Source: Candidatus Altiarchaeota archaeon
GTDB taxonomy: Archaea; Altiarchaeota; Altiarchaeia; IMC4; SCGC-AAA252-I15
Length of the DNA stretch: 64,000 bases
Reading direction: 5' to 3'
NCBI GenBank assembly: GCA_043800255.1
Contig: JAZDNF010000010.1
Span: 67,478-131,477, forward strand
A program made the position numbers and the translations under genes. Below the pieces are notes generated by a model, which was not told the origin of the DNA, did not search any database, and saw only the letters and a program-made list of their open reading frames with translations. This document shows, piece by piece, positions 2 through 60,930 of the stretch. Positions within the stretch are counted from its first letter, which is position 1. Each line of letters opens with the position of its first letter.

Positions 2-433
2 GGGTTCATGCTCGGCAGAGGGAAGACAATAACCCTGAAAGGCGACGCTGGAGGTCGAACTGGCATGTCACTGGCAGGCGGCACGCTCAACATAGAAGGA
101 GACGTTGGGATGTATACTGGCCAGCTTATGGACGCCGGCGTAATAAATGTGACAGGAAACGCAGGCAATTACACGGGAGTCGGGATGAGAAACGGGACAA
201 TCAAGATCGGAGGGGACGTTGGGGAAAACACAGGAAAGGGGATGATAGGCGGTCACATTCACATAAAAGGCAACGCCGGCAGAGGCTTGGGAGACAAGAT
301 GAAAGGCGGCGGCATCACAGTCAACGGAGAGATGGCGGACCTAGCAGCCAGCGTAGGGGGGATGAAAGATGAGGGCCCGAAACCAGAAGGAGGTCAAATC
401 TGGAACAAGAGGGTAAAAATATGGGGAAAGTAG
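2..433 (+). CDS. Array member 1, GXGXG beta-helix protein (5' truncated by window edge)
   Basis: Frame open from the window start; GXGXG coils; ends GQIWNKRVKIWGK. Confidence 0.9.
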   Translation, partial: GFMLGRGKTITLKGDAGGRTGMSLAGGTLNIEGDVGMYTGQLMDAGVINVTGNAGNYTGVGMRNGTIKIGGDVGENTGKGMIGGHIHIKGNAGRGLGDKMKGGGITVNGEMADLAASVGGMKDEGPKPEGGQIWNKRVKIWGK

Positions 434-1143
434 ATCAAAAGATTGTGAAGTTGAAATTGGAAGGGCATCAGCTGAGCGAGAAGCTTCCCAAGCTTAAGGA
501 CCCTGTCATCAGGGAGGCTCTCGAATTGTACTCTCAACTGCTCTATGATGTGTACGCTTCCACTCCGACGGTAGAGTATCCGGAATATCTGCGTAGGACG
601 GAAGGCTTTAACATGACGCCGGCGCAGCTGCAGGAGATGCTGGACGTCTGGGAGAAGTCTTCCCAGGATTTTTCCGGGCCAGTCTGGGCCAACGACGCTG
701 TAGGGTGGGCTAAGATGGGAGTGTTTGCGACCGCCTTGATGCAGAACTCAAAACACAATAATTTCGAGTTCGAGCTGAAGAGAGCGCACCTGCAATACTT
801 AGGCTGTTTTCTGACGCAGGGGAAGAGCATCAAAGTCAAAGGCGACCTCGGGCAGTGGACCGGCTGGGGGCTGCAGGGAGGGAGAATAGAGGTAGATGGC
901 AATTTATCCTTCTGCACCGGCCAGAAAATGAAGGCAGGAGAGATCATAGTGAACGGCGACATCTCCAGGATGGGCGCCATAGAAATGGAGGGCGGGCTGA
1001 TACACGTTAAAGGCGACGCTGAAGAGTACCTGGGAAATAAGATGAAAGCAGGCAAGGTGATTGTCGACGGAAAGCTCAAAGGAGTGTCTGAAGATTACAT
1101 CTCCGGAGAAATCTACAACAAAAATGTGAGAGTGAAACCATGA
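421..1143 (+). CDS. Array member 2, GXGXG beta-helix protein (240 aa)
   Basis: MGKVDQKIVKLKLEG leader, GVFATALMQNS, GXGXG coils; 13-nt overlap with member 1. Confidence 0.92.
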   Translation: MGKVDQKIVKLKLEGHQLSEKLPKLKDPVIREALELYSQLLYDVYASTPTVEYPEYLRRTEGFNMTPAQLQEMLDVWEKSSQDFSGPVWANDAVGWAKMGVFATALMQNSKHNNFEFELKRAHLQYLGCFLTQGKSIKVKGDLGQWTGWGLQGGRIEVDGNLSFCTGQKMKAGEIIVNGDISRMGAIEMEGGLIHVKGDAEEYLGNKMKAGKVIVDGKLKGVSEDYISGEIYNKNVRVKP

Positions 1144-2078
1144 CAGGCACAAAGGTCGTTAAATTGAACTTGGAGGGCGGCGGATTGGCTGATCAACTGC
1201 CGAAGCTGGCAGGGTTTAATGATGCCATTATAGCAGATGCTCATAAAGTGTTCGATCAGACTCCGCATTATGCCTCGCCGTCCGCATATTTCAGGGCGCT
1301 TGTCGAAGATACGGGAGGTTTGGACGTGCCGTCCAGCCAGATGCAGAGGGTATTGGATAAGTCGTTGGAAAAATACCGGCATACTGGGGAGTATCTCGGC
1401 AGGGCAGGGTTTCTAATCTCGGCTTTGATTCAGAATTCCAGCGACAAGAGGTTCAGGCTGACGGTAAAGGAGCCGTTGCACGTTCTGGGTTACGGACTGG
1501 GCAGAGGCAAAGAACTAGTTGTTGACGGCAATCTGGGAGATTTCACAGGCTCCTACTTGGATGGAGGCCGGGTCATAGTCAACGGTTCAGTCGCCTCCAT
1601 GGCTGGCGACTGCATGTCCGCCGGAGAGTTGATCGTCAACGGTGATGTGGGAGAAAGGGCAGGCCTGAGCATGAAAGGCGGGAAAATTGGCGTGAAAGGT
1701 AATGCAAGTGATGAACTTGGCGGGTGGATGGAAGGCGGAATAATAACTGTTGATGGAAACGTTGGAACCGATGCAGGAAAATGGATGAAAGGCGGCGAAG
1801 TGCATGTAAACGGCGATGTTGGGGATAATACTGGCACAGGCATGAACGGAGGAACCCTAAAAGTCGTAGGGAACTCAGGAGACGGGACCGGCTGGAGTAT
1901 GAACGGCGGGATTATCCTCATCGGAGGAAATGTCGGGAAGGGCACTGCAGGTTGCGCTAGGGGAGGCACAATCAAAGTCAACGGCAAAATAAAAGAAATA
2001 AGCAAATTACTGTCTGAACGCGGAGAATTCAAAGGGGAAATCTGGGAGGAAGGATTCCAAATCTGGCCGAAAAAATGA
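1140..2078 (+). CDS. Array member 3, GXGXG beta-helix protein (312 aa)
   Basis: MTGTKVVKLNLE leader, GXGXG coils, ATGA overlap. Confidence 0.93.
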   Translation: MTGTKVVKLNLEGGGLADQLPKLAGFNDAIIADAHKVFDQTPHYASPSAYFRALVEDTGGLDVPSSQMQRVLDKSLEKYRHTGEYLGRAGFLISALIQNSSDKRFRLTVKEPLHVLGYGLGRGKELVVDGNLGDFTGSYLDGGRVIVNGSVASMAGDCMSAGELIVNGDVGERAGLSMKGGKIGVKGNASDELGGWMEGGIITVDGNVGTDAGKWMKGGEVHVNGDVGDNTGTGMNGGTLKVVGNSGDGTGWSMNGGIILIGGNVGKGTAGCARGGTIKVNGKIKEISKLLSERGEFKGEIWEEGFQIWPKK

Positions 2079-3070
2079 CAGGCACGAAGGTTGTTAAACT
2101 CAAACTGGAAGACGGCGGCTTGGGAGACAGGCTCCCGAAGCTGGCGGAAGACCCGCTTGTGAAAGAGGCTGCAGAGTTCTACGATAATTGGGAATACAAC
2201 ATGTTGGTGGCGTCAAGACGATTCTATGAGGAAACGCTTGAGAAAGCCAAGCAGTGGAATCTCACATCCTCTCAAGTGCAAAGGCTGGTCGAGGGCCTCG
2301 AAGGAAAACTCACGCCAGGACATGAGGCAGAGTATTCTGAGAAGACCGGCATATTCCTGAGCGCGATAATCCAGGGATCAAGCACCAGCGAATTCGAGTT
2401 CAAGACGAGAAGGCCCTTAACCTACCTGGGATTCCAGCTCAGGGATGGGAAGAAGATCACCGTACACGGCGATGTGGGGGACAACACCGGCAGGTTCATG
2501 GAATCCGGCGAAGTCCGCGTGAAAGGGAATGCCGGGAGCGAGACGGGGAACTTCATGAAAGGCGGCAAGATAATAGTCGAAGGCGATGCGAAGAACATGA
2601 CCGGACACCTGATGGAAGCAGGCGAAATCGATGTCAGAGGCGAAGCCGGAGATCACAGTGGCAGCGAAATGGTGGACGGCACAATACGTGTCGGAAAATC
2701 TGCCGGAAAAAACACGGGCGAGAAGATGAGAGGCGGAAAAATCCATGTCACAGGCGGTGCCGGAGACAGGACAGGCTACGGGATGCAGGACGGGTACATT
2801 GAGGTTGGAAGAGATGCCGGCATGTTCACAGGCGAGTGGATGGCTGGCGGCAAAATCCACGTCAAAGGCAACGTCAAGGAGGAGACAGGTAAGCGCATGA
2901 TAAACGGCGAAATCATCGTCGACGGCGATGCAGGAGCGTCCGCAGCCTCCATGATGACCGGCGGCAAGATAAGCGTCGGCGGAGACATGGCAGATCTAGC
3001 AAGAGACCAGCCATTCAAATACATAGGAGTCGGCCAAATCTGGAACAAAGGAAAAAGGATAGCAGGATGA
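2075..3070 (+). CDS. Array member 4, GXGXG beta-helix protein (331 aa)
   Basis: Leader, GXGXG coils, ATGA overlap. Confidence 0.93.
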   Translation: MTGTKVVKLKLEDGGLGDRLPKLAEDPLVKEAAEFYDNWEYNMLVASRRFYEETLEKAKQWNLTSSQVQRLVEGLEGKLTPGHEAEYSEKTGIFLSAIIQGSSTSEFEFKTRRPLTYLGFQLRDGKKITVHGDVGDNTGRFMESGEVRVKGNAGSETGNFMKGGKIIVEGDAKNMTGHLMEAGEIDVRGEAGDHSGSEMVDGTIRVGKSAGKNTGEKMRGGKIHVTGGAGDRTGYGMQDGYIEVGRDAGMFTGEWMAGGKIHVKGNVKEETGKRMINGEIIVDGDAGASAASMMTGGKISVGGDMADLARDQPFKYIGVGQIWNKGKRIAG

Positions 3071-3810
3071 CAGGCACAAAAGTAGTCAAATTGAAGCTGG
3101 AGGATGCTGGTGGCGGGAATCTGCCAAAATTGAAGGATACAGTGCTTGCTATACTTGAGACCGCTTACAAAAGTTTCGAGCACAAGCCTGAAGACGTCCG
3201 CAGTGACCGTTATGCGTTTGCGTTGGCTTCTCTGGTTGGCGTAGACGCCAACGAGGCGAGGGTCCGGTCCAAGAAGACGTTAATCTCCATGTCCAATGTG
3301 AACTGTGATGAGCGGACAATCCAAGCGTTCATAGACAAATCCCTAATCAGTCATCAGCGTGAGGGAGAGTTTCAGGGCAAGGCAGGTATTTTCTTAAACG
3401 CGCTGATAAGCACCTCTCCAGAGGAAAAGCTCACATTAGATCTCAGAAAGCTGAAGAGGATGAATAACCTTTGCTCATTCATGGAGGATAAGGACGTTAC
3501 GCTGATAGGGGATGTCGGCGACTGGACTGCCTATGCGGCGTGGTCTGGGAAGGTTACAATCAAAGGCAACGCCGGGAACGGAACAGGGTGTGCGCTTATT
3601 GGCGCCACAGTCATAGTGGAAGGGGATGCTGGAGACGATACCGCCCGTAGTGCGGAAGGTGGCGAAATCCACATCAAAGGAGATTGCGGAATGCATACTG
3701 GGGAGTTCATGAAAGGCGGTAAACTACTGGTGAATGGCAAAATAGCGGAACTAAGCGATAAAATCAAAGGCGGCGAAGTCTGGCAGGGAAAGACGAGGAT
3801 ATACCCATGA
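3067..3810 (+). CDS. Array member 5, GXGXG beta-helix protein (247 aa, divergent helical domain)
   Basis: Leader, GIFLNALIS, GXGXG coils, ATGA overlap. Confidence 0.93.
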   Translation: MTGTKVVKLKLEDAGGGNLPKLKDTVLAILETAYKSFEHKPEDVRSDRYAFALASLVGVDANEARVRSKKTLISMSNVNCDERTIQAFIDKSLISHQREGEFQGKAGIFLNALISTSPEEKLTLDLRKLKRMNNLCSFMEDKDVTLIGDVGDWTAYAAWSGKVTIKGNAGNGTGCALIGATVIVEGDAGDDTARSAEGGEIHIKGDCGMHTGEFMKGGKLLVNGKIAELSDKIKGGEVWQGKTRIYP

Positions 3811-4601
3811 CTGGAACCAAGATTGTAAAACTAAAGCTGGAGAACGCTAATGCGCCAGGCAGATTACCCAGCCTCAGGGAGTCCACAGCAGAGAAAGTCC
3901 TCAGCGTGTTTATGGCAACAGAGTACGTCGAACCTGACGAATGCTATCTCAGCTTCCGGGAGCAGACGAAAGATTTGAACGTCACATCCTCCCAGCTTCA
4001 GAAGATCATACGCGCACTAGAGAGAGGACACATAAAAAATACCACGGATTCGCACAAGGCAGGCATGCTGGTGAGCGCATTCATCCAGAATTCGACGGAA
4101 ACCGAGTTTCATATACAGTCTAAAATCCCGCTCGGATGTGTGGGATACAGGCTGCAGGGCGATAAGAAGATCACAATCGAGGGAGATTATGGAGATGCCA
4201 CAGGCTGGGAAATGAAAAGCGGCAGCATCCACGTCAAAGGACATGCTGGAATGCACCCTGGAATTGCCATGGAGGGCGGGACGATAATAGTCGACGGAAA
4301 CGCTGGACTTGGTACCGGCTATGTCATGTCAGGCGGCAAAATACACGTCAAAGGAAATGTGGGGGAGGAAACCGGCTACAAGATGAGCAACGGGACGATA
4401 GAGGTCGACGGCAGCTCACGAGACCAAACCGGGTTCGGCATGCACGGCGGCACCTTGCACATCGGAGGGAACGCAGGAAAGGAGACCGGCAATGACATGG
4501 GAGGCGGCATCATCAAAGTCGATGGAAAAATCAGCGGAATAAGCGGCAGCTACAAGAAGGGAGAAATCTGGGAAGCCGAGGTGAAGGTGAGGCCAAAGTG
4601 A
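3807..4601 (+). CDS. Array member 6, GXGXG beta-helix protein (264 aa)
   Basis: Leader, GXGXG coils, ATGA overlap. Confidence 0.93.
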   Translation: MTGTKIVKLKLENANAPGRLPSLRESTAEKVLSVFMATEYVEPDECYLSFREQTKDLNVTSSQLQKIIRALERGHIKNTTDSHKAGMLVSAFIQNSTETEFHIQSKIPLGCVGYRLQGDKKITIEGDYGDATGWEMKSGSIHVKGHAGMHPGIAMEGGTIIVDGNAGLGTGYVMSGGKIHVKGNVGEETGYKMSNGTIEVDGSSRDQTGFGMHGGTLHIGGNAGKETGNDMGGGIIKVDGKISGISGSYKKGEIWEAEVKVRPK

Positions 4602-5434
4602 CTGGGACAAAGGTCGTCAAACTGAGGCTGGAAGATAGTGGAGGGAAGCTGCCCGCCCTGATAGGCGACAAGGTGGATGAGGCTGCGGTGGGGAAGGCAG
4701 TGGAACTATTCTATGCTGAGGTGCCTGACATCCCGCTCCAAGGGATTGATGTCCAAAAGGATGTCGCATACTATGAGAAGATGGTGGATGCGACAAGAGA
4801 CTTTAATGTGACGACAGAGCAGCTTACTGAAATAGTCAGCAAAATCGAAGACGACCAGCGTCTGAGGCTTAAGACGGCGCATGTCATGGGAATGTATTTC
4901 ACCGCATTGATGAACAATTCAAAGCATCCTTATTTCGAGATAAAAACGCGCGAGAACATGTGGTATCTGGGGATGAGGATGAAGGACGACAAGACCGCAG
5001 TCCTGAAGGGTAAGGGAGGAAGGCATGTTGGATACGAGATGGAACATGGCACCCTAATAGTCGAAGGCAACACAGGGGCTTATACAGGCCAGCACATGAA
5101 AGGCGGGCAGCTAATCCTGAAAGACTACTCTGGAGACGCGTTAGGCGAATGGATGCAAGGCGGCAGCATAATGGCAGAAGCTGACGTTGGAAAATACGCC
5201 GGCAGGCACATGCGAGGAGGGAGCTTAACAGTGAAAGGCAAATCAGACGATTACACCGGCATGCAGATGATCAACGGCATAATCCGCATCGGAAAAGACG
5301 CTGGCAGCTGGACCGGCGACGGGATGAGAGGCGGCAAAATCACAGTAGACGGGAAGATAAGACATCTTGGGTATGACATGACCGGCGGAGAAATATGGCA
5401 GGGGAATGAAAAGGTCTGGCCGAGAGAAAAATGA
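4598..5434 (+). CDS. Array member 7, GXGXG beta-helix protein (278 aa, GTG start)
   Basis: Leader, GXGXG coils, GTGA overlap. Confidence 0.93.
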   Translation: MTGTKVVKLRLEDSGGKLPALIGDKVDEAAVGKAVELFYAEVPDIPLQGIDVQKDVAYYEKMVDATRDFNVTTEQLTEIVSKIEDDQRLRLKTAHVMGMYFTALMNNSKHPYFEIKTRENMWYLGMRMKDDKTAVLKGKGGRHVGYEMEHGTLIVEGNTGAYTGQHMKGGQLILKDYSGDALGEWMQGGSIMAEADVGKYAGRHMRGGSLTVKGKSDDYTGMQMINGIIRIGKDAGSWTGDGMRGGKITVDGKIRHLGYDMTGGEIWQGNEKVWPREK

Positions 5435-6078
5435 CCGGCACAAAAATCGTCAAGTTGAACTTAGAGGGGGGCGGTGCCGACAAGCTCCCCCAATTGAAAG
5501 AGGATATCATCACTAGCAAGGTTTTTGACATCATCGAGAGGACACCGTACAACGTTGTAACTGGGGGGTCCTATTATGAGAGGATTCTCGAAGCCACCAG
5601 AGGATTAACTCCGAAAGAGGATGAGATACAGGAAGTGTTAACTCGCCTGCTGTCAGCGCACAAGGAGGACGGAAGATTCATGCATGACACGTTTATGGTG
5701 ATGAAGGTCGGCTACATGACGAACGCATTGATCCACCACTCCAGACAGAAGAAAATCATGTTAATCCTGCCGGAGCCTGTGAACTGCCTGGGCTACAGGC
5801 TGGAAGAGGGGAAGGAGGTAATACTGGAGGGAAATGCTGGCGGAAACATCGGCTGCGAGATGAAAGGCGCCAAACTAACGGTTAACGGTAACGTGCGGGG
5901 GAACCTTGGGACGGAGATGACTCAGGGCGAAATCACAGTGAACGGGAGCGTTGGGGGGACTGTCGGCGAGGACATGGAAGGAGGGAAGATAACAGTCAAC
6001 GGAGAAATCAAAAAACTGAGCGACAGGATAAAGGGTGGCGAAGTCTGGCAAAAAAACAACAGAGTGTGGCCAACATGA
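5431..6078 (+). CDS. Array member 8, GXGXG beta-helix protein (215 aa)
   Basis: Leader, GXGXG coils, ATGA overlap. Confidence 0.93.
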   Translation: MTGTKIVKLNLEGGGADKLPQLKEDIITSKVFDIIERTPYNVVTGGSYYERILEATRGLTPKEDEIQEVLTRLLSAHKEDGRFMHDTFMVMKVGYMTNALIHHSRQKKIMLILPEPVNCLGYRLEEGKEVILEGNAGGNIGCEMKGAKLTVNGNVRGNLGTEMTQGEITVNGSVGGTVGEDMEGGKITVNGEIKKLSDRIKGGEVWQKNNRVWPT

Positions 6079-9820: not shown

Positions 9821-10623
9821 GCGGGACAAAGGTCGTCAAACTAAAGTTGGATGGTGATGGGCCCTCACAGAAGCTGCCAAAGCTTAAGGAACCTCCGATA
9901 GAGGATACCCTGAAGCTCTACGATCGTCTGGAAGTCGACGCCGATTTTCTGTATAAGCGGGAATATGCTGATATGCTGAAAGCCGCTGGAGGAGTCAATC
10001 TCATGCCAGAACAAATGCAGGAGGTGCTGTCCGAGCTGGAGAAGAAGCACGGCGATGAGAAAAATTATCCCAAGAAGGCAGGACTATTCATTACAGCTTT
10101 GATACAAAATTCAAGTCAGGAACGTTTCGAATTAGACGCTAAAAAAGCGTTATCCTATGTTGGATGCCGGCTGAAGGGAGGGAAGGACATAAAGATTAAA
10201 GGCGTGCTTGGAGACTATACTGGGGCTGAGATGGAGGATGGCAGCATAACCGTTCTCGGAAGCGCGAGCGACAGCACAGGCCGCGACATGAGAGGCGGGA
10301 AAATACACGTGGAGGGTAGCGTGAACGGCTACACTGGAATGCAAATGAAGGCCGGCGAGATAACCGTGATGGGACATGCTGGGGACTGCACAGGCCATCT
10401 CATGGAGAATGGAAAGATAAAGGTGATGCAGGATGTCGGGCGTCTCACGGGGTTCAACATGAAAGGCGGGGAAATCTGGGTCGGAGGAAACGCTCACATG
10501 GACACTGGCTCTTTCATGGGAGGCGGGAAAATCTATGTTGTCGGAGGGATAACCCACATAGACAAGGATAGTATAAAAGGCGGCGAAATATTCGCAGAAG
10601 GGTCAAAGGTGTGGCCAGAATGA
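9817..10623 (+). CDS. Array member 14, GXGXG beta-helix protein (268 aa)
   Basis: MSGTK leader, GXGXG coils, ATGA overlap. Confidence 0.93.
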   Translation: MSGTKVVKLKLDGDGPSQKLPKLKEPPIEDTLKLYDRLEVDADFLYKREYADMLKAAGGVNLMPEQMQEVLSELEKKHGDEKNYPKKAGLFITALIQNSSQERFELDAKKALSYVGCRLKGGKDIKIKGVLGDYTGAEMEDGSITVLGSASDSTGRDMRGGKIHVEGSVNGYTGMQMKAGEITVMGHAGDCTGHLMENGKIKVMQDVGRLTGFNMKGGEIWVGGNAHMDTGSFMGGGKIYVVGGITHIDKDSIKGGEIFAEGSKVWPE

Positions 10624-11657
10624 CAGGCACAAAGGTCGTCAAACTTAAGCTGGAGGATGGAGCTGGCGATAAGTTGCCGAGGCTTAAGGATGATGACATT
10701 AACGTGGACTCTGTAGCAGAGCTGTTCGAAAAGTTAGAGTATACGACTGTAGATGAGGCTGAATCCTACTACAAGAGTGTGCTTGATGCTACGAAAGGGC
10801 TGCATGCGTCCCCCTTGAAACTGCAGGCTCTGCTAGAAACCATAGAGGAAAAGCATGGCGGGGAAACCAACCCGGATCAGGTCGGCCTATTCCTGACAGC
10901 ATTGATTGAGAACTCCCGACACAGGGAATTCGTGATAAAACCTGGAAAACACCTCTCCTACTTAGGCTACCGGCTGTCAGGCGGCAAGAAAATAGTCGTA
11001 GAAGGTGATGTCGTACGCAATACTGGCAGTGAGATGAGAGGCGGAACTGTTATAGTGGAAGGGGATGCGGTAGACTCCACCGGGGAGAATATGGTGGACG
11101 GCAAGATAATAGTCAAAGGCGAGGCAGGAGCTAGCACAGGCGCTGGGATGCTGGGAGGAAGCATAACGGTTCACGGTGACGCACACCATGCTACTGGTTC
11201 CAGGATGCTTGGTGGAAAAATCCACATCAAAGGCAGTGTTTGGGATCATCTAGGCGATGGGATGAAAGGCGGCAGCATCACAGTCGAAGGGAAAGCTGGG
11301 AACGGGACTGGATCAGCAATGGAAGACGGCACCATAACCATCATGAAAGACAGTGGACATTACACCGGCTATCAGATGAAAGGCGGGAACATCATCGTAA
11401 AAGGTGATGTAACGTATGATTATCTCGGCTACGGCATGGAGGGCGGGAACATAGAGGTGGGAGGAAACGCTGGCAAATGCGTTGGTAATAACATGAAAGG
11501 AGGCCGCATTAACATAGGCGGGAACGGAGGAGACTATCTCGGGGTTGGGATGAAAGCTGGCGAGATCATCGTGGGAGGCAGGATAGAAAAAATTTATCCT
11601 AAGAGCATCGAGGGCGGCGAGATTTGGGAAGCCGGAAAAAAGGTGTGGCCGAAATGA
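10620..11657 (+). CDS. Array member 15, GXGXG beta-helix protein (345 aa)
   Basis: Start moved from 10611 to the MTGTK ATG; long coil run. Confidence 0.92.
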   Translation: MTGTKVVKLKLEDGAGDKLPRLKDDDINVDSVAELFEKLEYTTVDEAESYYKSVLDATKGLHASPLKLQALLETIEEKHGGETNPDQVGLFLTALIENSRHREFVIKPGKHLSYLGYRLSGGKKIVVEGDVVRNTGSEMRGGTVIVEGDAVDSTGENMVDGKIIVKGEAGASTGAGMLGGSITVHGDAHHATGSRMLGGKIHIKGSVWDHLGDGMKGGSITVEGKAGNGTGSAMEDGTITIMKDSGHYTGYQMKGGNIIVKGDVTYDYLGYGMEGGNIEVGGNAGKCVGNNMKGGRINIGGNGGDYLGVGMKAGEIIVGGRIEKIYPKSIEGGEIWEAGKKVWPK

Positions 11658-16813: not shown

Positions 16814-16853
16814 GCCCTATTTCTGTCTGAAATCCCGGATATATACTCGAGAA
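16814..16853 (+). promoter_or_regulatory. Possible internal promoter/regulatory spacer
   Basis: Non-coding gap ending CGGATATATACTCGAGAA-ATG, similar to the 18398-18459 spacer. Confidence 0.3.
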
Positions 16854-18397: not shown

Positions 18398-18459
18398 CGG
18401 CGGAAATAGGCTGATTTCCCGCGTTTTTCTCTTTCAACGTCGCGGTATATAACCGGGAA
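18398..18459 (+). promoter_or_regulatory. Possible internal terminator/promoter spacer
   Basis: Longest gap in the array (62 nt): pyrimidine tract TTTTTCTCTTTC followed by CGGTATATAACCGGGAA-ATG. Confidence 0.35.
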
Positions 18460-25574: not shown

Positions 25575-26293
25575 CGGGCACTAAGGTTGTAAAGCTGAAA
25601 CTTGAGGATAATGGTCAGGCTGATAAACTGCCGAAGCTGAAAGACCCGCTCACAAAGGAGATCGCAAAAATTTTCGAGGAGACTGGCTACTGGCAGCTTG
25701 GGGCGAGCGGCCGTGATGCCCCAGAGTTCTACTACTTGGTGGTTCAGGAAAAAACGGAGAAATATGATGTCAGCCCCGAAGAGCTGCAGCTCATACTTGC
25801 GGATATTGAAGGGGGAGACCGCAGCAGAGCATGGTTTGACAGGTGCGCTGGCATATTCCTGACAGCCTTGGTGAACAACTCCAGCCGCGATGAGTTCAGA
25901 ATAACGCCTCAGATAAAATTGGACGGGATAGGCTACAGGCTCCAGAAGGGGAAGAAGATAACAGTTGACGGAGACGTCGGCGGATGGGTGGGACAGTACA
26001 TGGAAGGTGGCACGCTCATAGTCAACGGAAACGCAGATGATGCTCTTGGAGAGGGGATGGAGGATGGACGGGTTATCGTTACCGGCAGTGCAGGAAACAA
26101 CGTCGGCTTCCACATGGCAGACGGGTACATCGAAATCGGAAAAGAGACAGACGTCTTCACAGGAGACCGGGCGGAGGGGGGCAAAATCCTGGTAAAGGGG
26201 AAGGTAGGGCAATGCATCCCCCGGTATGAGGGCGGGGAACTCTGGGAAAGAGACCGAAAAATACTCCCAATGAAGAAAAGCAGATTAAAATGA
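25571..26293 (+). CDS. Array member 34, GXGXG beta-helix protein (240 aa, GTG start)
   Basis: Leader, GXGXG coils, GTGA overlap, AGGAGGAGG upstream. Confidence 0.93.
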   Translation: MTGTKVVKLKLEDNGQADKLPKLKDPLTKEIAKIFEETGYWQLGASGRDAPEFYYLVVQEKTEKYDVSPEELQLILADIEGGDRSRAWFDRCAGIFLTALVNNSSRDEFRITPQIKLDGIGYRLQKGKKITVDGDVGGWVGQYMEGGTLIVNGNADDALGEGMEDGRVIVTGSAGNNVGFHMADGYIEIGKETDVFTGDRAEGGKILVKGKVGQCIPRYEGGELWERDRKILPMKKSRLK

Positions 26294-27372
26294 CCGGGAC
26301 TAAAGTTGTCAAGCTGAAACTGGAAGGTGATGGTGCAGAGAATTTTCCGAAACTGAAGGCTGGGGCTGCTGTGGGAGAGGCAGTACAACTTTATAAAACG
26401 ATCGAATTCGAAGATAAACCTATAGAGGACATGTGCACTGTCGACGGTAGGACAGCGGGATTAAATCTGAAACCCTCTGAGATTCAGACGGTGCTCGATA
26501 TATTAGAAGAAGAGCACGGTGAGGATGAGGGATACCTTCAGAATGCAGGACTCTATATCACTGCGTTGATAAAAAACTCAGACGACAAGACGTTCACAAT
26601 AAAGACGAGAAAGCCGCTAGACCATTTCGGGAATTTCATGTCAGGGAAAGAGGTTGAAGTAGTCGGGGACATTGGCAAATGGGCTGGGGTGGGCATGAAA
26701 GACTGCAGACTAGGGATAACGGGAAGTGCGGGGGAGCTTGCCGGGTGGATGATGGGCAACAGCACGCTGAAAGTCTCAGGCGATGTCGGAAAAAAAACAG
26801 GGAATGAGATGGAAAACAGCAGACTTATCATAGGAGGCAACGCCGGAGAATATCTGGGCTCGAGGATGAAGAGTGGAAAGATTCTGGTAGAAGGTGATGT
26901 CCAGGGTTGGATGGGGAATGAAATGGAAAGCGGAGAGATAACCGTCAGAGGAAACATTGGCGGCGCCCTCTGCTGGAACATGAAATCCGGAAAAATAAAA
27001 ATTGAAGGAAATGCTGGCGACTCGATAGGAACGTGGATGAAAGATGGGGAGATTACTATCGAAGGCAGAGCAGGCAGCAGAGTGGGCTGGCTGCTGAAAG
27101 GCGGGAAGATACTGGTCAAAGGGGGTGTTGACGATGAGCTGGGACGCGAGATGACTGGCGGCGAAATAACCGTGGAAGGCAGTGCGAGAAGCTTAGCGGG
27201 CGCTGGAATGAAAAAGGGGACAATAAAAATCGGGAAAGATGGAGGATACAACCTAGGCTCCAAAATGGAAGGCGGACGCATCGAAGTCGGCGGAACCATT
27301 GAGAACATAGCCTCTGACATCCAAGGCGGGGTAATCTACAGCAAAGAGGAGAAGGTGTGGCCTAAATGGTAA
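26290..27372 (+). CDS. Array member 35, GXGXG beta-helix protein (360 aa, longest)
   Basis: Leader, about 11-12 coils, ATGA overlap. Confidence 0.93.
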   Translation: MTGTKVVKLKLEGDGAENFPKLKAGAAVGEAVQLYKTIEFEDKPIEDMCTVDGRTAGLNLKPSEIQTVLDILEEEHGEDEGYLQNAGLYITALIKNSDDKTFTIKTRKPLDHFGNFMSGKEVEVVGDIGKWAGVGMKDCRLGITGSAGELAGWMMGNSTLKVSGDVGKKTGNEMENSRLIIGGNAGEYLGSRMKSGKILVEGDVQGWMGNEMESGEITVRGNIGGALCWNMKSGKIKIEGNAGDSIGTWMKDGEITIEGRAGSRVGWLLKGGKILVKGGVDDELGREMTGGEITVEGSARSLAGAGMKKGTIKIGKDGGYNLGSKMEGGRIEVGGTIENIASDIQGGVIYSKEEKVWPKW

Positions 27373-28055
27373 ATACTAACGTAGTCAAACTGAAGCTGGA
27401 AGGCGGGTCTGAGGGCAGGCTGCCCAAGCTTATGGACGATACGGTTGAGAGGGCGGTTGAGCTATTCGACGAGGGCAGGCATGATGGTTATCCTCCGAAA
27501 AGTTTTGAGACTTATCTGCGTCAGACTAGCGACATAAGCGTGTCAGAGCGGCAATTGCAGGACATCGTTGACAGAATATGGGAGAAACACGGTGATGCGG
27601 AGAATACCGATGACCATCTGGGATTGTATGTGTCCGCTCTTGTCAGCAGTTCAAAACACAGCAAATTCAGGATTGAGACTCCCAAGCCGCTGAATAATCT
27701 CGGTTACAGGCTGCCGAAAGGCAAGACTCTCATAATCGGTGGCGATGCAGGAAGGCATTTGGGCTCCCTAAATGCCGGGCAGATAATCGTGAAAGGCGAC
27801 GCCGGGGATTACATCGGCTGGGAGATGAAAGAGGGCCAGATACTCGTCGAAGGCAACGCCGGCATGTATGTTGGATGTTATATGCGCAGCGGAGAGATTC
27901 AAGTTAGAGGGCAGGCCGATCCGATGGTCGGCATAAACATGACCGGCGGATTCATACGAGTCGGAAAGCTGTCAGAGGGTGAGGGCATCAGCGCAGCATA
28001 TCAAGGAGGCGAAATCTGGGAAGGAAACAAAAAAGTCAGACCAAAAGAAACATGA
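27366..28055 (+). CDS. Array member 36, GXGXG beta-helix protein (229 aa)
   Basis: MVNTNVVKLKLE leader; 7-nt ATGGTAA overlap. Confidence 0.92.
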   Translation: MVNTNVVKLKLEGGSEGRLPKLMDDTVERAVELFDEGRHDGYPPKSFETYLRQTSDISVSERQLQDIVDRIWEKHGDAENTDDHLGLYVSALVSSSKHSKFRIETPKPLNNLGYRLPKGKTLIIGGDAGRHLGSLNAGQIIVKGDAGDYIGWEMKEGQILVEGNAGMYVGCYMRSGEIQVRGQADPMVGINMTGGFIRVGKLSEGEGISAAYQGGEIWEGNKKVRPKET

Positions 28056-35417: not shown

Positions 35418-36215
35418 ATGACAGGGACTAGAATCGTGAAACTGAAGCTGGAGGAAGACGGCAGCCCGGAAAAACTCCCCCAGCTGATGGGAGATAAAAC
35501 CGATGAGATAGTGCGCGTGTACCGTGAGACGGGCTTTGATAGCTTCCATTATATAAATTACTACAATGAAATGCTGAGGAGGACGGCGAAGTATAATCTG
35601 ACACCAAAACAGCTTCAGAATGTTGTGACCGTGCTAGAGCTAGAACGCTCCCGCAGCCTTGACAAGTACCAGCCAAGCGCAGGCCTTTTCATAACAGCTC
35701 TGATACAAAACTCCGGGCACGACAGATTCGAATTCAGAGTCCGAGAGCGGCTGTCCCGTCTGGGCCACAGGCTGGCGAGCGGAAAAGAGATAATAGTCGA
35801 CGGTGACGTGGAAAATTTCACAGGCGAAAGTCTCCAGGGCGGCAGCATCACGGTAGACGGGAGCGCACGCGAGTGCACCGGAAGTTCGATGAGGAAAGGG
35901 AAAATACTCGTCAAGCACAGCTGTGAGAACTACACCGGCTCTGGCATGAGCGGCGGGAGCATAACGGTCGAAGGCAGGGCTGGGGATGAGACAGGGCACG
36001 AGATGAAAGGCGGGACGATACGGGTAGACTACCATGTAGGCGACAAGACCGGGCAGCGGATGAGCGGCGGCCTCATAGACGTTGGAATGACAGCCGGACA
36101 CGATACTGGAGAGAAAGCGTTTGGGGGCATAATAAAAGTCGGAGGCGAAATCAAAGGCATCAGTCCCCGCTTCCACGGGGATGAGCTCTGGGAAAACGGC
36201 GAAAAGATAAGATGA
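35418..36215 (+). CDS. Array member 47, GXGXG beta-helix protein (265 aa)
   Basis: MTGTRIVKLKLE leader; 1-nt gap upstream. Confidence 0.93.
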   Translation: MTGTRIVKLKLEEDGSPEKLPQLMGDKTDEIVRVYRETGFDSFHYINYYNEMLRRTAKYNLTPKQLQNVVTVLELERSRSLDKYQPSAGLFITALIQNSGHDRFEFRVRERLSRLGHRLASGKEIIVDGDVENFTGESLQGGSITVDGSARECTGSSMRKGKILVKHSCENYTGSGMSGGSITVEGRAGDETGHEMKGGTIRVDYHVGDKTGQRMSGGLIDVGMTAGHDTGEKAFGGIIKVGGEIKGISPRFHGDELWENGEKIR

Positions 36216-36241
36216 CCAAACATACGGTGTGGCCTAGATGA
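36212..36241 (+). pseudogene. Collapsed array unit / 9-aa bridging mini-ORF MTKHTVWPR*
   Basis: ATG ACC AAA CAT ACG GTG TGG CCT AGA TGA; ATGA overlap with member 47 at its start and with member 48 at its end; begins MT and ends VWPR like full units. Confidence 0.7.
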
Positions 36242-40235: not shown

Positions 40236-42680
40236 ATGTTCGCTGGTAGATTTTTGGTTTTGTCTCTTCTGCTGACAGGGTTCGTGTCAGCCTACTACCT
40301 AACCGGAGGAACAGACGAAGCAACCCTCAACCTGACATGCATCAGCAGAGAATGCTCCAACCTGTCGGCGACAGCAGACCTGGAAAGCAAAACGTCGGTC
40401 GGAAAGGCACTCGACAGACTGGAATCCGCAAGCCTAACCCGCCTCAGAGACAAGGCAGAATTCCTAGTCAAGAGCAGAATCTGGGAAAAGCAGGGCATCA
40501 TACTAGACTACCGCAAGATTCCGAAAGACTACTGGAATATGACTGTAGAATTCTCCCGCGACTCCAAAATAGCAAGCCTGAACTCGAGCATCGGGTTCGT
40601 GATACAGTTCTGGGAGCCGCCCGCATTGGAGTACCGGACTCATCTGCTGAGTGCTCTGAACGCAGGGGAAGAGGACAGCATCATCGGGAAGCTGGCGCAG
40701 AAGGCGGCTGAGGTTGGCATCGCCTCAGAGGATGAGATAGCTGACTTCGGCGCAAGACTCTACTCCCAGGGGCTGAGAGAATCGCACGCTAAGGCGATTG
40801 CAGAACTCACGCCAAAAGTGAGGGCAGAATACACCAACGTCTTCAACGGCATCTCAGTAGAAGCCTCCCCGGACGAGGCTCTGAAGCTGGCATCACTGCC
40901 GAACGTGAAAGCAGTGTATCCGATCAGACAATACCATACTATGCTATACGAGAGCGTGCCTGCGATAAACGCTGACGACGTCTGGCTCTTGAACGACAGC
41001 CAGAACAGGAGCGTCACAGGCTATGGTGTAACAGTCGCCGTCATAGACACCGGCGTAGACTACACTCACACAGACTTCGGAGGCTGCAGTAACAGGAACA
41101 TAACAGGCAACGCCGAAAACTATTCACTGAACTCCTCCCACCCCTACAATGACAGCTTCGACTACACGTGGACCATTACGATGCCAGGCTACTCCAGCAT
41201 CGCAGTCCACTTCTCCCGCCTTGAAGTGGAGTCAGGCTACGACCACGTTTACGTGATGAACTCGTCCAACAGCATACTGGACGACTACTCCGGGAGCTAC
41301 TCCAGCGTCTGGAGCTCATCTGCCCAGGGCGACACCATCAAGGTGAGACTCACGTCTGATGCGATGGTCGCCGGCTGGGGCTTCAGCATCGACCAGATTA
41401 TAAACGGGAGCACAGTCTTCAGCTGGAACTGCCCCAGGATAGTTGGAGGCTACGACTTCGTCAACAACGACTCCGATTCAATGGACGACAACGGCCACGG
41501 AACACATGTGGCAGGCACAGTCGGAGCCAACAGCTCAGCCATAAGAGGCGTCGCACCCGACGCGAGCATGCTGGCCTACAAGGTGTGCGACTCAGGCGGG
41601 AGCTGCGCGACAGACCACATCCTGGCCGGAATAGACAGAGCGGTAGACCCCAACCAGGACGGCAACTACTCTGACAAGGCCGACATAATAAGCATGTCAC
41701 TGGGCGGCTCAGGAGACCCTGATGACGACCTCTCCCAGGCTGTTGACACTGCAGTCGACAACGGCATAGTAGTCATCGTGGCAGCAGGCAACAACGGCCC
41801 CTTCGAGGAGACCATAGCCTGCCCAGGCTGCGCAAGGAAAGCTATTGCAGTCGGGGCGGTGTACAAGAGCAACATCACCACAGGCAACAGGGAATCCAGA
41901 CTCACGGTGGAGAGCGACGATAACAGGGAGCTGCAGTCCAATGCATTCCAATACAGCAACACGACAGCAGCCTACGGCATATCAGAGGAACTCTACGATG
42001 CAGGCCTCGGTTACGCGGTGAACTACACATCCAACGCATCAGGGAAGACAGCCCTCATCGGGAGAGGCTCGATGAATTCCACAGAGTTCTATTTTTACGA
42101 GAAAGTCAACATCGCCCACGATGCTGGAGCTGTCGCTGCCATAATCTATAACAACGAGCCTGGGAACTTCCTAGGCACACTGATGAATGACTCCTCCATC
42201 CCAGCAGTCTCAATCTCTCAGGCCAACGGGACTTACCTTTTGGACCTGATGGACAACGGCACAGTCCGGGTTAACCTGACAGTGACTCCAGAGTACACGA
42301 TAATGGCGGAGTTCAGCTCCAGGGGGCCGAGTTACATCTACCAGAAGCCTGACGTTGTCGCTCCTGGAGTTGACATATGCTCGACACAGTGGGGCACAGC
42401 GTGGAGCGATGACGAGTGCATCGACGACCAGCACACTGCCATAAGCGGGACTTCGATGGCCACGCCCCACGTTGCTGGAGTGGCTGCGCTGATACTGCAG
42501 CAGCATCCCACGTGGACTCCGCTTGAGGTTAAAGCCGCCCTTGAAAACACGGCATACGATTATGGCCTGGACAGGAACGTCCAAGGCGCCGGGAGGGTGG
42601 ACGCGTACGCCGCGGTGACGTTGAACAGCACACCTCCTGTCGCAGCATTATATGACATATCGACGGTGGAATACAAATGA
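40236..42680 (+). CDS. Secreted S8 (subtilisin-like) serine protease with I9-like prodomain, inserted CUB-like domain and PA domain (814 aa)
   Basis: Signal peptide; catalytic motifs VAVIDTG, HGTHVAG, SGTSMATPHVAG; YTNVFNGISV prodomain; GKTALIGRG...AGAVAAIIYNN PA motif; SSHPY...GWGF CUB-like insert. Confidence 0.93.
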   Translation: MFAGRFLVLSLLLTGFVSAYYLTGGTDEATLNLTCISRECSNLSATADLESKTSVGKALDRLESASLTRLRDKAEFLVKSRIWEKQGIILDYRKIPKDYWNMTVEFSRDSKIASLNSSIGFVIQFWEPPALEYRTHLLSALNAGEEDSIIGKLAQKAAEVGIASEDEIADFGARLYSQGLRESHAKAIAELTPKVRAEYTNVFNGISVEASPDEALKLASLPNVKAVYPIRQYHTMLYESVPAINADDVWLLNDSQNRSVTGYGVTVAVIDTGVDYTHTDFGGCSNRNITGNAENYSLNSSHPYNDSFDYTWTITMPGYSSIAVHFSRLEVESGYDHVYVMNSSNSILDDYSGSYSSVWSSSAQGDTIKVRLTSDAMVAGWGFSIDQIINGSTVFSWNCPRIVGGYDFVNNDSDSMDDNGHGTHVAGTVGANSSAIRGVAPDASMLAYKVCDSGGSCATDHILAGIDRAVDPNQDGNYSDKADIISMSLGGSGDPDDDLSQAVDTAVDNGIVVIVAAGNNGPFEETIACPGCARKAIAVGAVYKSNITTGNRESRLTVESDDNRELQSNAFQYSNTTAAYGISEELYDAGLGYAVNYTSNASGKTALIGRGSMNSTEFYFYEKVNIAHDAGAVAAIIYNNEPGNFLGTLMNDSSIPAVSISQANGTYLLDLMDNGTVRVNLTVTPEYTIMAEFSSRGPSYIYQKPDVVAPGVDICSTQWGTAWSDDECIDDQHTAISGTSMATPHVAGVAALILQQHPTWTPLEVKAALENTAYDYGLDRNVQGAGRVDAYAAVTLNSTPPVAALYDISTVEYK

Positions 42681-46264: not shown

Positions 46265-46317
46265 AACGCGATATTCCCGCTATCTTTTTTATTCCTTTAT
46301 CCTATATTCTACTCTCT

Positions 46318-47166: not shown

Positions 47167-47270
47167 TTACTGTATCAGTAAGTTCTTACAAAATTCATTA
47201 CTTTAATGGTAATAATATGTCAGGATACAAACATCCTCTCATTTTTATCCAACCCATACCATTAGATTTC

Positions 47271-50546: not shown

Positions 50547-50573
50547 ACCCTTATTTTCATGGCTTCTGCAACG

Positions 50574-50647
50574 TTTTTATAGTCTATTACCATAATTAAA
50601 CGCTAAAAGTTTTAGCAAGTTCTGCATGCATGCGTTTATGAGGTGAT
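50574..50647 (+). promoter_or_regulatory. TATA-like box, palindrome and Shine-Dalgarno upstream of the Cys-rich gene
   Basis: TTTTTATA at 50574-50581; GCTAAAA-G-TTTTAGC at 50602-50616; GAGGTGAT at 50640-50647, 5 nt before the ATG. Confidence 0.55.
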
Positions 50648-50652
50648 AAGAC

Positions 50653-60926: not shown

Positions 60927-60930
60927 TCTT

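Follow-up and report, generated by a model that had tools for sequence, protein, structure and literature searches.

The locus described here raises the question of why the divergent proteins of a long tandem gene array all begin with nearly the same short peptide. The stretch of DNA that was analysed, referred to as the window, comprises 64,000 nucleotides from Candidatus Altiarchaeota archaeon, and the leader under study opens one of the array genes in it (Table 1). The original prediction regarded this leader as a shared docking tag, for example an export signal, a cargo-loading peptide or a donor strand. The answer proposed below, which is tentative, retains the docking tag and names a possible partner for it, namely a pair of proteins encoded in the array itself.

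The leader and its distribution

In the leader MTGTKVVKLNLEGGGLADQLPKLAG, a strand-like segment of basic and hydrophobic residues is followed by an acidic residue, a spacer rich in Gly and an LPxL motif. The consensus over about 24 residues reads TK[VI][VI]KL[KRN]L, an acidic residue, the spacer and [KR]LPxL[KRM][DE], leading into helix 1. Among the 97 array members, M1, K8, L11 and P21 are 100% conserved, followed by L20 (98%), L9 (97%), L23 and K5 (both 96%) and T4 (95%). With 3.74 bits per column, residues 1–12 form the most informative run of 12 columns in the entire alignment, the leader being the best-conserved stretch of these paralogs, which show 30%–42% identity elsewhere. It is followed, as had been claimed, by the most variable part of the family (approximately residues 28–88).

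The conserved parts are separated by a region that tolerates change. Position 12 is acidic in 98 of the 99 leaders found in this genome (E in 69, D in 29, Q in 1), and the spacer between L[ED] and LP varies from 5 to 8 residues, with G at 39%, D at 15%, E at 12% and A at 11% (variation is seen in, e.g., DGAADK, ENANAPGR and DESADK). The LP pattern is matched by 97 of the 99 leaders, 76 of which have K or R directly before it; after LPx, these 97 leaders continue with L (93) or I (4), then K (53), R (26) or M (14), and then D (36), E (30) or G (15). A reading of KLKLEGG as a double-glycine (C39) or ubiquitin-like 'LxLxGG' motif was rejected on the grounds that the Gly run is not conserved. No hydrophobic h-region of the Sec, Tat or class III pilin type was detected by Kyte-Doolittle analysis in the first 45 aa of the 97 members (15-residue maximum mean: median 0.36, top 1.61), and no RR occurs in the 51 window leaders, so that the denial of a Sec, Tat or pilin signal in the original prediction holds.

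The tag exists, then, as a peptide, and as a peptide it is under selection. Fourfold-degenerate third positions of the leader carry 0.1–0.3 bits and all synonymous codons are used (83 of 94 members, those in the canonical register). Because the fourfold sites vary freely, the conservation lies at the peptide level and does not reflect recent homogenisation of the DNA.

Table 1. Location of the leaders, the leader-bearing gene and the array members in the window.
Feature	Position	Strand	Remarks
Leader MTGTKVVKLNLEGGGLADQLPKLAG	1140–1214	+	First 25 codons of the 312-aa ORF
Leader-bearing ORF, 312 aa	1140–2078	+	Leader, variable N-domain, beta-helix, C-terminal cap
Near-consensus leader MTGTKVVKLKLEDGAGDKLPRLKD	10620–10691	+	First row of the leader alignments
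Leader variant, F for L before the invariant Pro (ENFPKLK)	26290–26364	+	
Leader variant MVNTNVVKLKLEGGSEGRLPKLMD	27366–27437	+	First five residues changed, remainder kept
Window part of the tandem array	421–40184	+	51 complete paralogs, leader at the start of each
Leader starts 1–17	421, 1140, 2075, 3067, 3807, 4598, 5431, 6075, 6881, 7552, 8424, 9146, 9817, 10620, 11654, 12340, 13167	+	
Leader starts 18–34	14057, 14842, 15399, 16127, 16854, 17600, 18460, 19082, 19882, 20616, 21404, 22219, 23135, 24001, 24723, 25571, 26290	+	
Leader starts 35–51	27366, 28052, 28873, 29583, 30212, 30832, 31497, 32180, 33037, 33957, 34796, 35418, 36238, 37146, 38072, 38761, 39450	+	
3' end of the preceding array member	2–433	+	Leader at C15:67113, upstream of the window

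The leaders in the window are approximately 60–81 nt long. The whole array, of which the window holds a part, comprises 97 genes over about 80 kb (G000:C15:26884–107661, G000 being this genome) that encode proteins of 186–447 aa, and the assertion that every array member bears the leader proved correct both for the 51 complete window genes and for all 97. Neighbouring genes share 4-nt ATGA overlaps at 71 of 93 junctions. The array is flanked upstream by a gene for an M6 peptidase with CBM96 and LTD domains, and downstream by genes for S8 subtilases, an FG-GAP/CUB protein and a 1782-aa protein.

A 26-position HMM was made from the leaders alone of 44 window genes out of 51; in this genome it returned 99 matches with E ≤ 1.2e-7, of which 97 fall in the array and two on contig C10, and the next best match had an E-value of 0.39. 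In the 60 other genomes of the phylum, the same HMM found nothing below E 0.05. Of the 99 proteins, 97 are the GXGXG beta-helix proteins of the array; the others are a stray paralog and a HEAT-like protein. Together these ~100 tagged proteins make up about 4.6% of the 1.75-Mb genome. Two other searches added little: a word-index protein search with residues 1–115 returned the query itself as the sole hit, the paralogs falling under the E-value bar at that database size, and a leader pattern scan of the genome contigs matched 19 stretches, none of which was confirmed as a relative. For window positions 1140–6078, no sequencing run and no RNA data set was listed, a result that has no bearing on expression.

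The HEAT-like protein (416 aa) is the sole carrier outside the family that the leader HMM detected in this genome. When it was aligned with the family profile by hhalign, the match was confined to residues 3–35 (probability 95%), and neither a Pfam nor a GXGXG match was found in it. The whole-genome HMM search suggested in the original prediction has thus yielded one otherwise unrelated carrier, and the tag occurs on a second fold. The gene of this carrier follows a tagged GXGXG gene with an ATGA overlap, and its leader shares 57 of 72 nt with the leader of that neighbour, so that it may stem from a rather recent duplication of a 5' end and need not have been maintained independently.

The body of the tagged proteins

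The protein encoded at 1140–2078 was modelled with AlphaFold2 from an alignment of 44 paralogs, with a mean pLDDT of 93. The modelled body consists of a four-helix variable N-domain (helices within 24–99), a GXGXG right-handed beta-helix (104–285) and a cap formed by a C-terminal helix and a hairpin (289–309). Both ends of the beta-helix are covered in the model, one by the N-domain together with strand 104–108 and the other by helix 289–294 with hairpin 300–309. From residue 31 onwards, the 10-residue blocks reach pLDDT values of 80–99 (mostly 97–99), while the three blocks of residues 1–30 reach 56, 50 and 69, and residues 1–16 have no secondary structure. Leader residues 1–25 look unpacked in this model, and a low pLDDT is not proof that the leader is free in the cell. 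The possibility named in the original prediction that would have spoken against a tag, namely a leader folded confidently into the core of its own protein, is not what the model gives.

The body belongs to the GXGXG beta-helix family (PF01493), which includes FwdC and the C-terminal domain of GltS. PF01493 scored 46.7 bits for the 1140–2078 protein; three of the four members scanned scored 46.7–57.7 bits, above the cut-off of 32.5 bits, and the fourth scored 27 bits. TIGR03122 scored 214.9 bits, and a Foldseek comparison of the AlphaFold2 model with FwdC (5t61) gave an E-value of 1.1e-6 at 31%–35% identity. The repeat and the fold of FwdC/FmdC, of FhcC and of the glutamate synthase C-terminal domain are common to the body of every array member. 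Unlike FwdC and GltB, the array members carry the leader and an extra, variable four-helix N-domain, differ in their number of repeats and occur in about 97 tandem copies. No partner genes of the fwdA/B/D or gltB type are present in the array. A role as functional FwdC, a formylmethanofuran dehydrogenase subunit, was rejected in view of the 97 copies and of an array that contains only paralogs together with AAA+ and VWA genes.

Single-copy FwdC-like and GltB-C-like genes of sister genomes are without the leader. When a GltB-C-like protein was aligned with the family by hhalign, the alignment ran from residue 26 of that protein to family position 97 onward and nothing was aligned with the leader; a homology of the leader to the GltB-C-like N-terminus was rejected on this basis. 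Among 35 distant beta-helix relatives from a library of 1.84 billion proteins, none has this leader and at least 10 have a different conserved N-terminal motif, from which it follows that the tag changes with the lineage and the body is kept.

A candidate partner inside the array

The only genes within the 80-kb array that do not belong to the family encode an 850-aa AAA+ protein and a 738-aa protein with a HExxH motif and a MIDAS-VWA domain; they form a divergent gene pair in mid-array. This pair, a candidate partner of the leader, does not figure among the suggestions of the original prediction.

In the highly divergent AAA+ ATPase, the Walker A (GEPGTGKT) and B (IIDEF; (I/L/F)DEF) motifs are invariant across three of three homologs; the protein of this genome carries a fused rhodanese domain. 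Class assignments are marginal by their scores, i.e., 21.8 bits for Pfam AAA_5 (cut-off 22), E 0.0065 for NCBIfam GvpN and E 0.16 for CobS, and the best match in a profile search against the PDB, proteasomal Rpt6, is weak.

The VWA protein has a disordered linker between its N-domain and its C-terminal VWA domain; the MIDAS is complete, with residues D535, S537, S539, T619 and D648 invariant in 14 sequences. Of the 14 aligned rows, at least 90% keep HEAGHH in the N-domain (one row lacks this region); AlphaFold2 places the motif on a helix (92–104) after three short strands, with pLDDT 80–95. For this HExxH N-domain, neither Pfam (all 14 members scanned) nor NCBIfam nor the PDB sequences gave a match, and the Foldseek and VIA-align lists for the protein were filled by the VWA domain. 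According to structure comparison of the model, the VWA domain is closest to the AAA+-coupled MIDAS domains of Rea1 (Z 20.9, rmsd 2.9 Å over 214 residues; Foldseek E 1.4e-7), MDN1 (Z 20.0) and NorD (Z 16.9, rmsd 12.5 Å), with generic VWA domains at Z ≤ 16.8. A co-fold of the VWA adaptor (738 aa, 4-row alignment) with Mg, Zn and a 36-residue leader (46-row alignment), run without controls, scored 0.00 in both runs and speaks neither for nor against binding.

Across the phylum, the pair co-occurs with terminal tags. Among 61 genomes of the phylum, a homolog of the AAA+ protein is present in three (G000, G004 and G018); the HExxH-VWA gene adjoins it in all three and on one metagenome contig, and expanded families with constant terminal tags occur only in these three genomes. 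G004 and G018 contain 26 and 45 matches, respectively, to a different, helical family of approximately 240 aa, whose invariant columns are confined to an N-terminal and a C-terminal tag. Three copies of this family flank the AAA+/VWA pair in G018; next to the pair of G004, whose contig measures 11.8 kb, there is no tagged gene. In five genomes that lack the pair, one or two matches each to the helical family were obtained, which leave the tag regions uncovered, and no tags were found in four ORFs examined from four of the five loci. One genus is split in this respect: both pair and tags are present in G004 and G018, and G013, G016 and G020 have neither. Because G004 and G018 share that genus, the co-occurrence is backed by about two independent lineages, together with a gain or loss inside a genus.

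With the leader HMM, the AAA+ N-termini of G004 and G018, the AAA+ protein of G000 and the helical-family tags all scored ≤3 bits, and nothing appeared at E ≤ 1 in the phylum search. By eye, LPxLK in the leader resembles both the N-termini of the AAA+ proteins in G004 and G018 and the helical family's PPLK[KR] C-tag; at ≤3 bits with the leader HMM, this likeness was discarded.

The nearest parallels to the pair are the MoxR-class AAA+/VWA-MIDAS chaperone pairs (NorQ/NorD, CbbQ/CbbO, RavA/ViaA) and Rea1 (Midasin)-MIDAS with its UBL-domain ligands; they are matched here by an AAA+ gene adjoining the gene of a protein in which a linker joins an N-domain to a C-terminal MIDAS-VWA domain. Ligands of Rea1 reportedly donate a Glu to the MIDAS ion (work behind PDB 6qta and 6qtb). 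For NorQ/NorD, the MIDAS is described as binding the client at its acidic residues, with specificity proposed to come from the adaptor's N-domain (PMC9976466). Known MoxR-class AAA+/VWA pairs serve one defined client complex, whereas here about 99 diverse proteins with a linear N-terminal tag are the putative clients; unlike in NorQ/NorD-type pairs, the adaptor has a conserved HExxH, and the ATPase is highly divergent and, in this genome, carries the rhodanese fusion. A second parallel is provided by vWA-MoxR conflict systems, beside which peptide-processing modules are described that pair a zincin metallopeptidase with a precursor that diverges fast but keeps one terminal peptide constant (Kaur et al. 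2020, PMC7159879). Those modules resemble the present locus in that HExxH, vWA and AAA+ are linked with a fast-diverging family that keeps a constant terminal peptide; they differ in that the precursor is small and its conserved peptide C-terminal, whereas the present tag sits at the N-terminus of folded beta-helix proteins that number ~100, and HExxH and VWA lie in one chain. No mention of 'GXGXG' or 'beta-helix' was found in PMC7159879.

Possible roles of the leader and their significance

That the conservation serves the nucleic acid rather than the peptide, in re-initiation at ATGA overlaps or as a recombination substrate, is largely refuted and retains an almost negligible probability: starts do overlap the preceding stops, and SD-like 4-mers lie before 66 of the 97 starts against 23 ± 4 in control windows, but the leader makes free use of synonymous codons and the 30 nt upstream carry 0.0–0.7 bits per position. 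It is hardly probable either that the leader sorts its proteins for non-classical export or for loading into a compartment or surface structure. Genes for secreted or surface proteins flank the array, and an N-terminal position is typical of sorting signals; against this, the leaders have neither a hydrophobic segment nor, in the window, a twin-arginine, no transporter gene lies within the array, and encapsulin (PF04454), BMC shell (PF00936) and C39 peptidase (PF03412) genes were not found in this 93%-complete genome in searches whose controls responded (for C39, in 7 of 14 genomes). A search for gas vesicles (PF00741) was uninformative, as its control gave no response in any genome. The cargo peptides of encapsulins and BMCs and the leaders of C39 substrates are alike by general description, being short, conserved, unstructured terminal peptides on otherwise different proteins, but the shell gene or C39 peptidase that goes with them was not found here and the Gly run of the leader is not invariant. 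It is also very unlikely that the leader simply forms part of each protein's structure, such as an N-terminal strand lying on its own N-domain or beta-helix that the model missed, with its conservation reflecting folding. Alignments of paralogs only can miss contacts, and by eye the FwdC-like and GltB-C-like proteins of sister genomes start with a short strand-like segment, an acidic residue and a Gly. Yet the same alignment places the rest of the protein with high confidence and leaves residues 1–25 unplaced, the leader stays unaligned with the GltB-C-like protein, the spacer varies in length and composition, the HEAT-like fold bears the same leader, and distant relatives keep the body with other N-termini.

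Two alternatives remain. In one, the leader is an assembly strand, with KVVKLKL adding as a donor or edge strand to another member and so giving a hetero-oligomer or filament for which the AAA+/VWA pair is an assembly chaperone, or to which the pair is unrelated. Basic and hydrophobic residues alternate in a way that suits an edge strand, the monomer model leaves this strand without a pairing partner, the 4-nt overlaps favour co-production of neighbours, and a MoxR/VWA pair in the assembly of an archaeal viral tail is a precedent cited in PMC7159879. We nevertheless think it unlikely, given that in the model each end of the beta-helix is closed off by elements of the same protein, that a simple C-terminal cap motif is present in 63 of 97 members against 97 of 97 for the leader, and that the HEAT-like protein, which has no beta-helix to extend, bears the leader too. 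In the other, which we hold to be decidedly unlikely, the leader is a pro-peptide that the HExxH domain removes, e.g., by cutting in the Gly-rich spacer, so that it would be a processing site for maturing or activating the beta-helix proteins and not a lasting handle. The near-invariance of HEAGHH among the adaptor homologs, its modelled position on a helix, a flexible Gly/Asp/Glu/Ala spacer between the conserved strand and the body, and the zincin metallopeptidase modules beside vWA-MoxR systems (PMC7159879) all point that way; the lack of a sequence match for the HExxH domain in Pfam, NCBIfam or PDB, structure searches taken up by the VWA domain, a third zinc ligand that was not identified, and a spacer with no conserved cleavage motif, in which GG is not invariant, point the other way. 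This reading overlaps the one that we prefer, because docking would precede cleavage.

The preferred reading, to which we give a slightly less than even chance, is that the leader is a flexible, portable docking tag and that the tagged proteins are clients or partners of the AAA+/HExxH-MIDAS-VWA machine encoded in the array. The core of the original proposal, a shared docking tag, is thereby kept, in line with a leader that is unpacked in the AlphaFold2 model, peptide-level selection, an unrelated carrier and the co-occurrence with the AAA+/VWA pair. Its specific mechanisms draw no support from these results: for cargo loading, the 93%-complete genome yielded no gene for an encapsulin or a BMC shell; for export, no machinery was identified; and for donor-strand polymerisation, the model shows a beta-helix closed off at either end by its own chain. 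By analogy with NorQ/NorD and Rea1-MIDAS/UBL, the VWA adaptor would grip the tag, whose acidic residue is a candidate for the sixth ligand of the MIDAS metal, and specificity would come from the strand and LPxL parts, perhaps by way of the adaptor's N-domain. The ATPase would then remodel, assemble or release the client, and the conserved HExxH domain may additionally clip the tag.

A broader version, which we consider rather unlikely, is that a general, hitherto undescribed addressing system exists in archaea, in which an AAA+ motor and a zincin-like MIDAS adaptor read a genome-specific terminal peptide, one 'dialect' of which is seen here. Any family gaining the peptide would be enrolled and multiplied, with ~100 variable-head clients being docked, remodelled, assembled or clipped as a result; the families concerned would be the beta-helix and HEAT-like proteins here and the helical-repeat proteins in the sister genomes. 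Under such a system, the frequent ATGA overlaps would mean that clients are made in a fixed order and ratio, which would leave room for an ordered hetero-assembly encoded by gene order.

In the parts consulted of the literature on MoxR/vWA, GXGXG, FwdC and Altiarchaeota/DPANN paralogs, no description of such arrays or tags was found, and the array genes would otherwise be named automatically as 'formylmethanofuran dehydrogenase subunit C'. If the address is read by the AAA+/MIDAS-VWA pair, it would offer a concrete handle on a large class of unannotated archaeal genes. It would also extend the role of MoxR/VWA-type machines from the maturation of one enzyme complex to the service of a hundred tagged clients, and explain the expansion of unrelated families in the few genomes that own the machine. 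With approximately one gene in twenty tied to it, the tag likely matters for the organism.

Organization of the array

The source genome (1.75 Mb, 17 contigs, 93% complete) devotes ~80 kb, or ~4.6% of its length, to a tandem array of genes that open with the same leader, an N-terminal peptide of about 24 residues reading TK[VI][VI]KL[KRN]L, an acidic residue, a spacer and [KR]LPxL[KRM][DE]. In each member, the leader is followed by a variable four-helix N-domain and a right-handed GXGXG (PF01493) beta-helix whose number of turns varies; a GGEIWxxGxKVWPK-type C-terminal cap usually closes the protein. Stop and start codons overlap by 4 nt (ATGA) at 71/93 junctions, so translation of the array probably proceeds in long coupled units. 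On NCBIfam TIGR03122 (cut-off 130.65) one member reaches 214.9 bits, so array genes would be labeled 'formylmethanofuran dehydrogenase subunit C' by automatic annotation; however, fwd partner genes are absent from the array.

Coordinates of the array, its neighbors and related loci (C15 and C10, contigs of the source genome; the window corresponds to C15:67478-131477)
Feature	Location	Strand	Remarks
Whole array, 97 leader genes	C15:26884-107661		94 by strict pattern, 3 with a single substitution each
Tail of one further array gene	window 2-433	+	
Complete leader-opening genes, n = 51	window 421-40184	+	
Leader-bearing ORF, 312 aa	window 1140-2078	+	first 25 residues MTGTKVVKLNLEGGGLADQLPKLAG, encoded at 1140-1214
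C-terminal K-V-W-P codons (example)	window 10606-10619		AAGGTGTGGCC
Member scoring on TIGR03122	window 10620-11657		
Spacers with TATATA-type motif	window 16814-16853 and 18398-18459		GGATATATAC, GGTATATAAC; 10-11 and 7-8 nt before ATG
Putatively shortened gene	window 35418-36215		
22-nt spacer with relic	window 36216-36237		ACGGTGTGGCCTAG
S8 subtilases x2 (with I9, and one with PA and CUB), FG-GAP/CUB/fn3 protein, 1782-aa protein	window 40236-55998	+	downstream of array
662-aa protein (HEAT repeat match), 413-aa protein (RHS repeat match)	window 56207-62921	-	downstream of array
M6 (InhA-like) peptidase with CBM96 and lamin-tail domain	C15:23274-26738		upstream of array
Divergent gene pair	C15:46002-50824		
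VWA protein, 738 aa	within C15:46002-50824		conserved HEAGHH motif, low-complexity linker, VWA domain
AAA+ protein, 850 aa	C15:48272-50824		outside the window; Walker A GEPGTGKT, Walker B IIDEF
Stray leader genes: 219-aa GXGXG member, then 416-aa protein	C10:21051-22999	-	adjoining, ATGA overlap

The K-V-W-P codons in the last ~15 nt of the genes are conserved and supply an SD-like 4-mer at -18 to -4 of the next start in 66/97 genes (23 ± 4 in random in-gene windows); the C-terminal protein motif may double as the ribosome-binding site of the following gene. In one 22-nt spacer, a remnant of the usual C-terminal coding sequence persists out of frame, which suggests that the adjoining gene was shortened through a frame change. 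Real intergenic spacers are few; two of them contain TATATA-type motifs, which may be internal promoters. Both flanks of the array encode large proteins of secreted or surface type, and the remaining minus-strand ORFs of the downstream flank (window 56207-62921) have no Pfam match.

A conserved peptide outside the predicted core

A leader-only HMM (26 positions, from 44/51 window genes) gave 99 matches in the source genome at E ≤ 1.2e-7, the next match standing at E 0.39, and nothing below E 0.05 in 60 other genomes of the phylum. In the 97 array members, M1, K8, L11 and P21 are invariant and T4, K5, L9, L20 and L23 are 95-98% conserved; position 12 is acidic (E or D) in 98/99 leaders, and the spacer comprises 5-8 residues, chiefly G, D, E and A. 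No other 12-column window of the alignment is as informative as residues 1-12 (3.74 bits per column), in agreement with the original prediction, in which the leader is the best-conserved stretch outside the coil framework. Its view that the leader has no hydrophobic segment holds over the array members; its exclusion of a Tat signal agrees with the absence of a twin-arginine from 51/51 window leaders. Across the 83/94 members with canonical register, all synonymous codons of the leader are used, and fourfold third positions carry only 0.1-0.3 bits; the 30 nt upstream of the starts carry at most 0.7 bits per position. The target of selection is therefore the peptide rather than DNA or RNA, and recent gene conversion does not account for the uniformity of the leaders.

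Two outcomes that the original prediction had named as counting against it, a leader confidently folded into the protein's own core and its restriction to one protein family, failed to appear. In an AlphaFold2 model of an array member, run with a 44-paralog alignment (mean pLDDT 93, pTM 0.88), ten-residue blocks from residue 31 onward have a pLDDT of 80-99, mostly 97-99, whereas residues 1-10, 11-20 and 21-30 have 56, 50 and 69, and residues 1-16 are assigned no secondary structure; the leader is thus predicted to lie outside the core. Genome-wide searches by pattern and by leader HMM alike found two carriers outside the array, adjoining on contig C10, one of which is outside the beta-helix family. 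This 416-aa protein shows neither a Pfam match nor a GXGXG repeat, and its likeness to the family profile is confined to residues 3-35 (hhalign probability 95%); the leader can thus be carried by a second fold. The protein's likeness to HEAT-repeat entries of the ESM Atlas, at a TM below 0.5, is a lead only. Because the two C10 leaders are identical at 57/72 nt, the 416-aa carrier may have gained its leader by fairly recent copying of a 5' end. The two genes close a compact operon with a 771-aa protein (Sigma70_r4-like modules) and other orphan proteins.

Relatives, distribution and the AAA+/HExxH-VWA pair

A profile of the first 115 residues matched 120 of 1.84 billion representative proteins (E ≤ 0.001), the best 85 being the genome's own array paralogs and the 219-aa C10 member. 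Matches to the remaining 35 begin only at about profile position 20-45, and the leader occurs in 0/35. Most of them combine a helical domain (AGLFLSALINNS-like) with GXGXG repeats and a GKIYHKGKLIV-like end; short fragments and unrelated repeat proteins account for a few. A different N-terminal motif (RFGxYKPExE..VR-like) is conserved in at least 10/35, and a third occurs in one or two; the tag therefore changes with lineage while the body is retained. Relatives P0090-P0095 and P0103 (~500 aa) contain two N-domain plus beta-helix modules per chain, i.e., fused tandem paralogs.

The single interruption of the array is a divergent gene pair encoding an AAA+ ATPase and an HExxH/VWA protein. The Walker A and B motifs of the former are invariant in 3/3 homologs, and with its weak matches to AAA_5, GvpN and CobS it is at most weakly MoxR-like; the C-terminal rhodanese domain (PF00581, E 5e-13) is found in the source genome only, the homologs of G004 and G018, two other genomes of the phylum, ending before it. 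In the VWA protein, 5/5 MIDAS residues are invariant in 14 sequences. Its AlphaFold2 model (mean pLDDT 71) is confident for the VWA domain, to which the nearest structures are Rea1 (Z 20.9, rmsd 2.9 A over 214 residues), human MDN1 (Z 20.0) and NorD (Z 16.9, rmsd 12.5 A over 214), with generic VWA domains at Z 16.8 and below. In the model, the domain is closest to MIDAS domains that work with AAA+ rings.

Among 61 genomes of the phylum, many of them incomplete, N-terminal profile and leader HMM place the tagged beta-helix family in the source genome only, and homologs of the AAA+ are confined to G004 (41% identity) and G018 (37%), other matches being restricted to the rhodanese part. Each of these two genomes, like one metagenome contig, has the AAA+ gene beside an HExxH-VWA homolog. 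G004 and G018 lack the tagged beta-helix family and have a distinct helical-repeat family of ~240 aa (26 and 45 matches, respectively). Across 17 aligned members (mean column identity 29%; 18-30% relative to the first row), invariance is limited to M1, PLL of the N-terminal tag (MTxK..R.QPLLxPP) and P and L of the C-terminal tag (PPLK[KR]). Three copies flank the pair on G018 contig C29, and no tagged gene stands beside it on the short G004 contig C32. Five genomes without the pair have 1-2 helical-family matches each, outside the tag regions, and no tags were seen in four ORFs from 4/5 fetched loci. Within one genus, G004 and G018 have both the pair and a tagged expansion, whereas G013, G016 and G020 have neither. 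In this phylum, then, expanded families with constant terminal peptides are found only alongside the pair, as judged from two profiled families, related genomes (G004/G018) and many incomplete assemblies. A by-eye LPxLK likeness among the leader, the G004/G018 ATPase N-termini and the helical-family PPLK[KR] tail reached at most 3 bits with the leader HMM and is thus not supported.

A possible docking handle and its alternatives

The most likely reading, at a little under an even chance, is that the leader is a docking handle that recruits its carriers to the AAA+/HExxH-VWA machine as clients. Against this reading stand the at most weakly MoxR-like ATPase, an HExxH domain with no match in Pfam, NCBIfam or PDB sequences, the unsupported LPxLK likeness, and the absence of a tagged neighbor of the pair on the G004 contig. 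According to PMC9976466, engagement of acidic client residues by NorQ/NorD requires the MIDAS, and the adaptor N-domain is proposed as the source of specificity. The leader, as a flexible peptide flanked by Gly, would offer in its near-invariant acidic residue a type of ligand suited to such a site. This residue would bind the MIDAS metal of the VWA adaptor, specificity would come from the strand segment and LPxL, ATP-driven remodeling or assembly of the client would follow, and the HExxH domain might clip the leader. That last step overlaps with the rather improbable view of the leader as a cleavable pro-peptide.

An assembly strand between members would suit the strand-like pattern and the translational coupling of the array genes, but it is unlikely: both beta-helix ends are capped in the AlphaFold2 model, the leader is in 97/97 members and the simple cap motif in only 63, and the HEAT-like carrier has no beta-helix. 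The second fold also speaks against an intramolecular strand overlooked by the model, as do the variable spacer and the hhalign alignment of a GltB-C-like protein, which begins only at family position 97 with nothing at the leader; we consider this improbable. An export or compartment signal, which the flanking secreted-protease genes might favor, is very unlikely, given that no shell gene or C39 peptidase was found in the 93%-complete genome and no transporter inside the array. Conservation as a nucleic-acid signal is largely refuted by the freely varying synonymous sites.

Among the papers listed by a literature search, none described such arrays or tags, and the eLife survey of vWA-MoxR systems (PMC7159879) contains neither 'GXGXG' nor 'beta-helix' in its text. 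The survey describes zincin-plus-precursor peptide-processing modules, the nearest published analogue. We rate the leader as a variant within known kinds, namely client recognition by AAA+/MIDAS-VWA machines or terminal addressing peptides. That it belongs to a general tag-addressed client system is a doubtful but conceivable extension.
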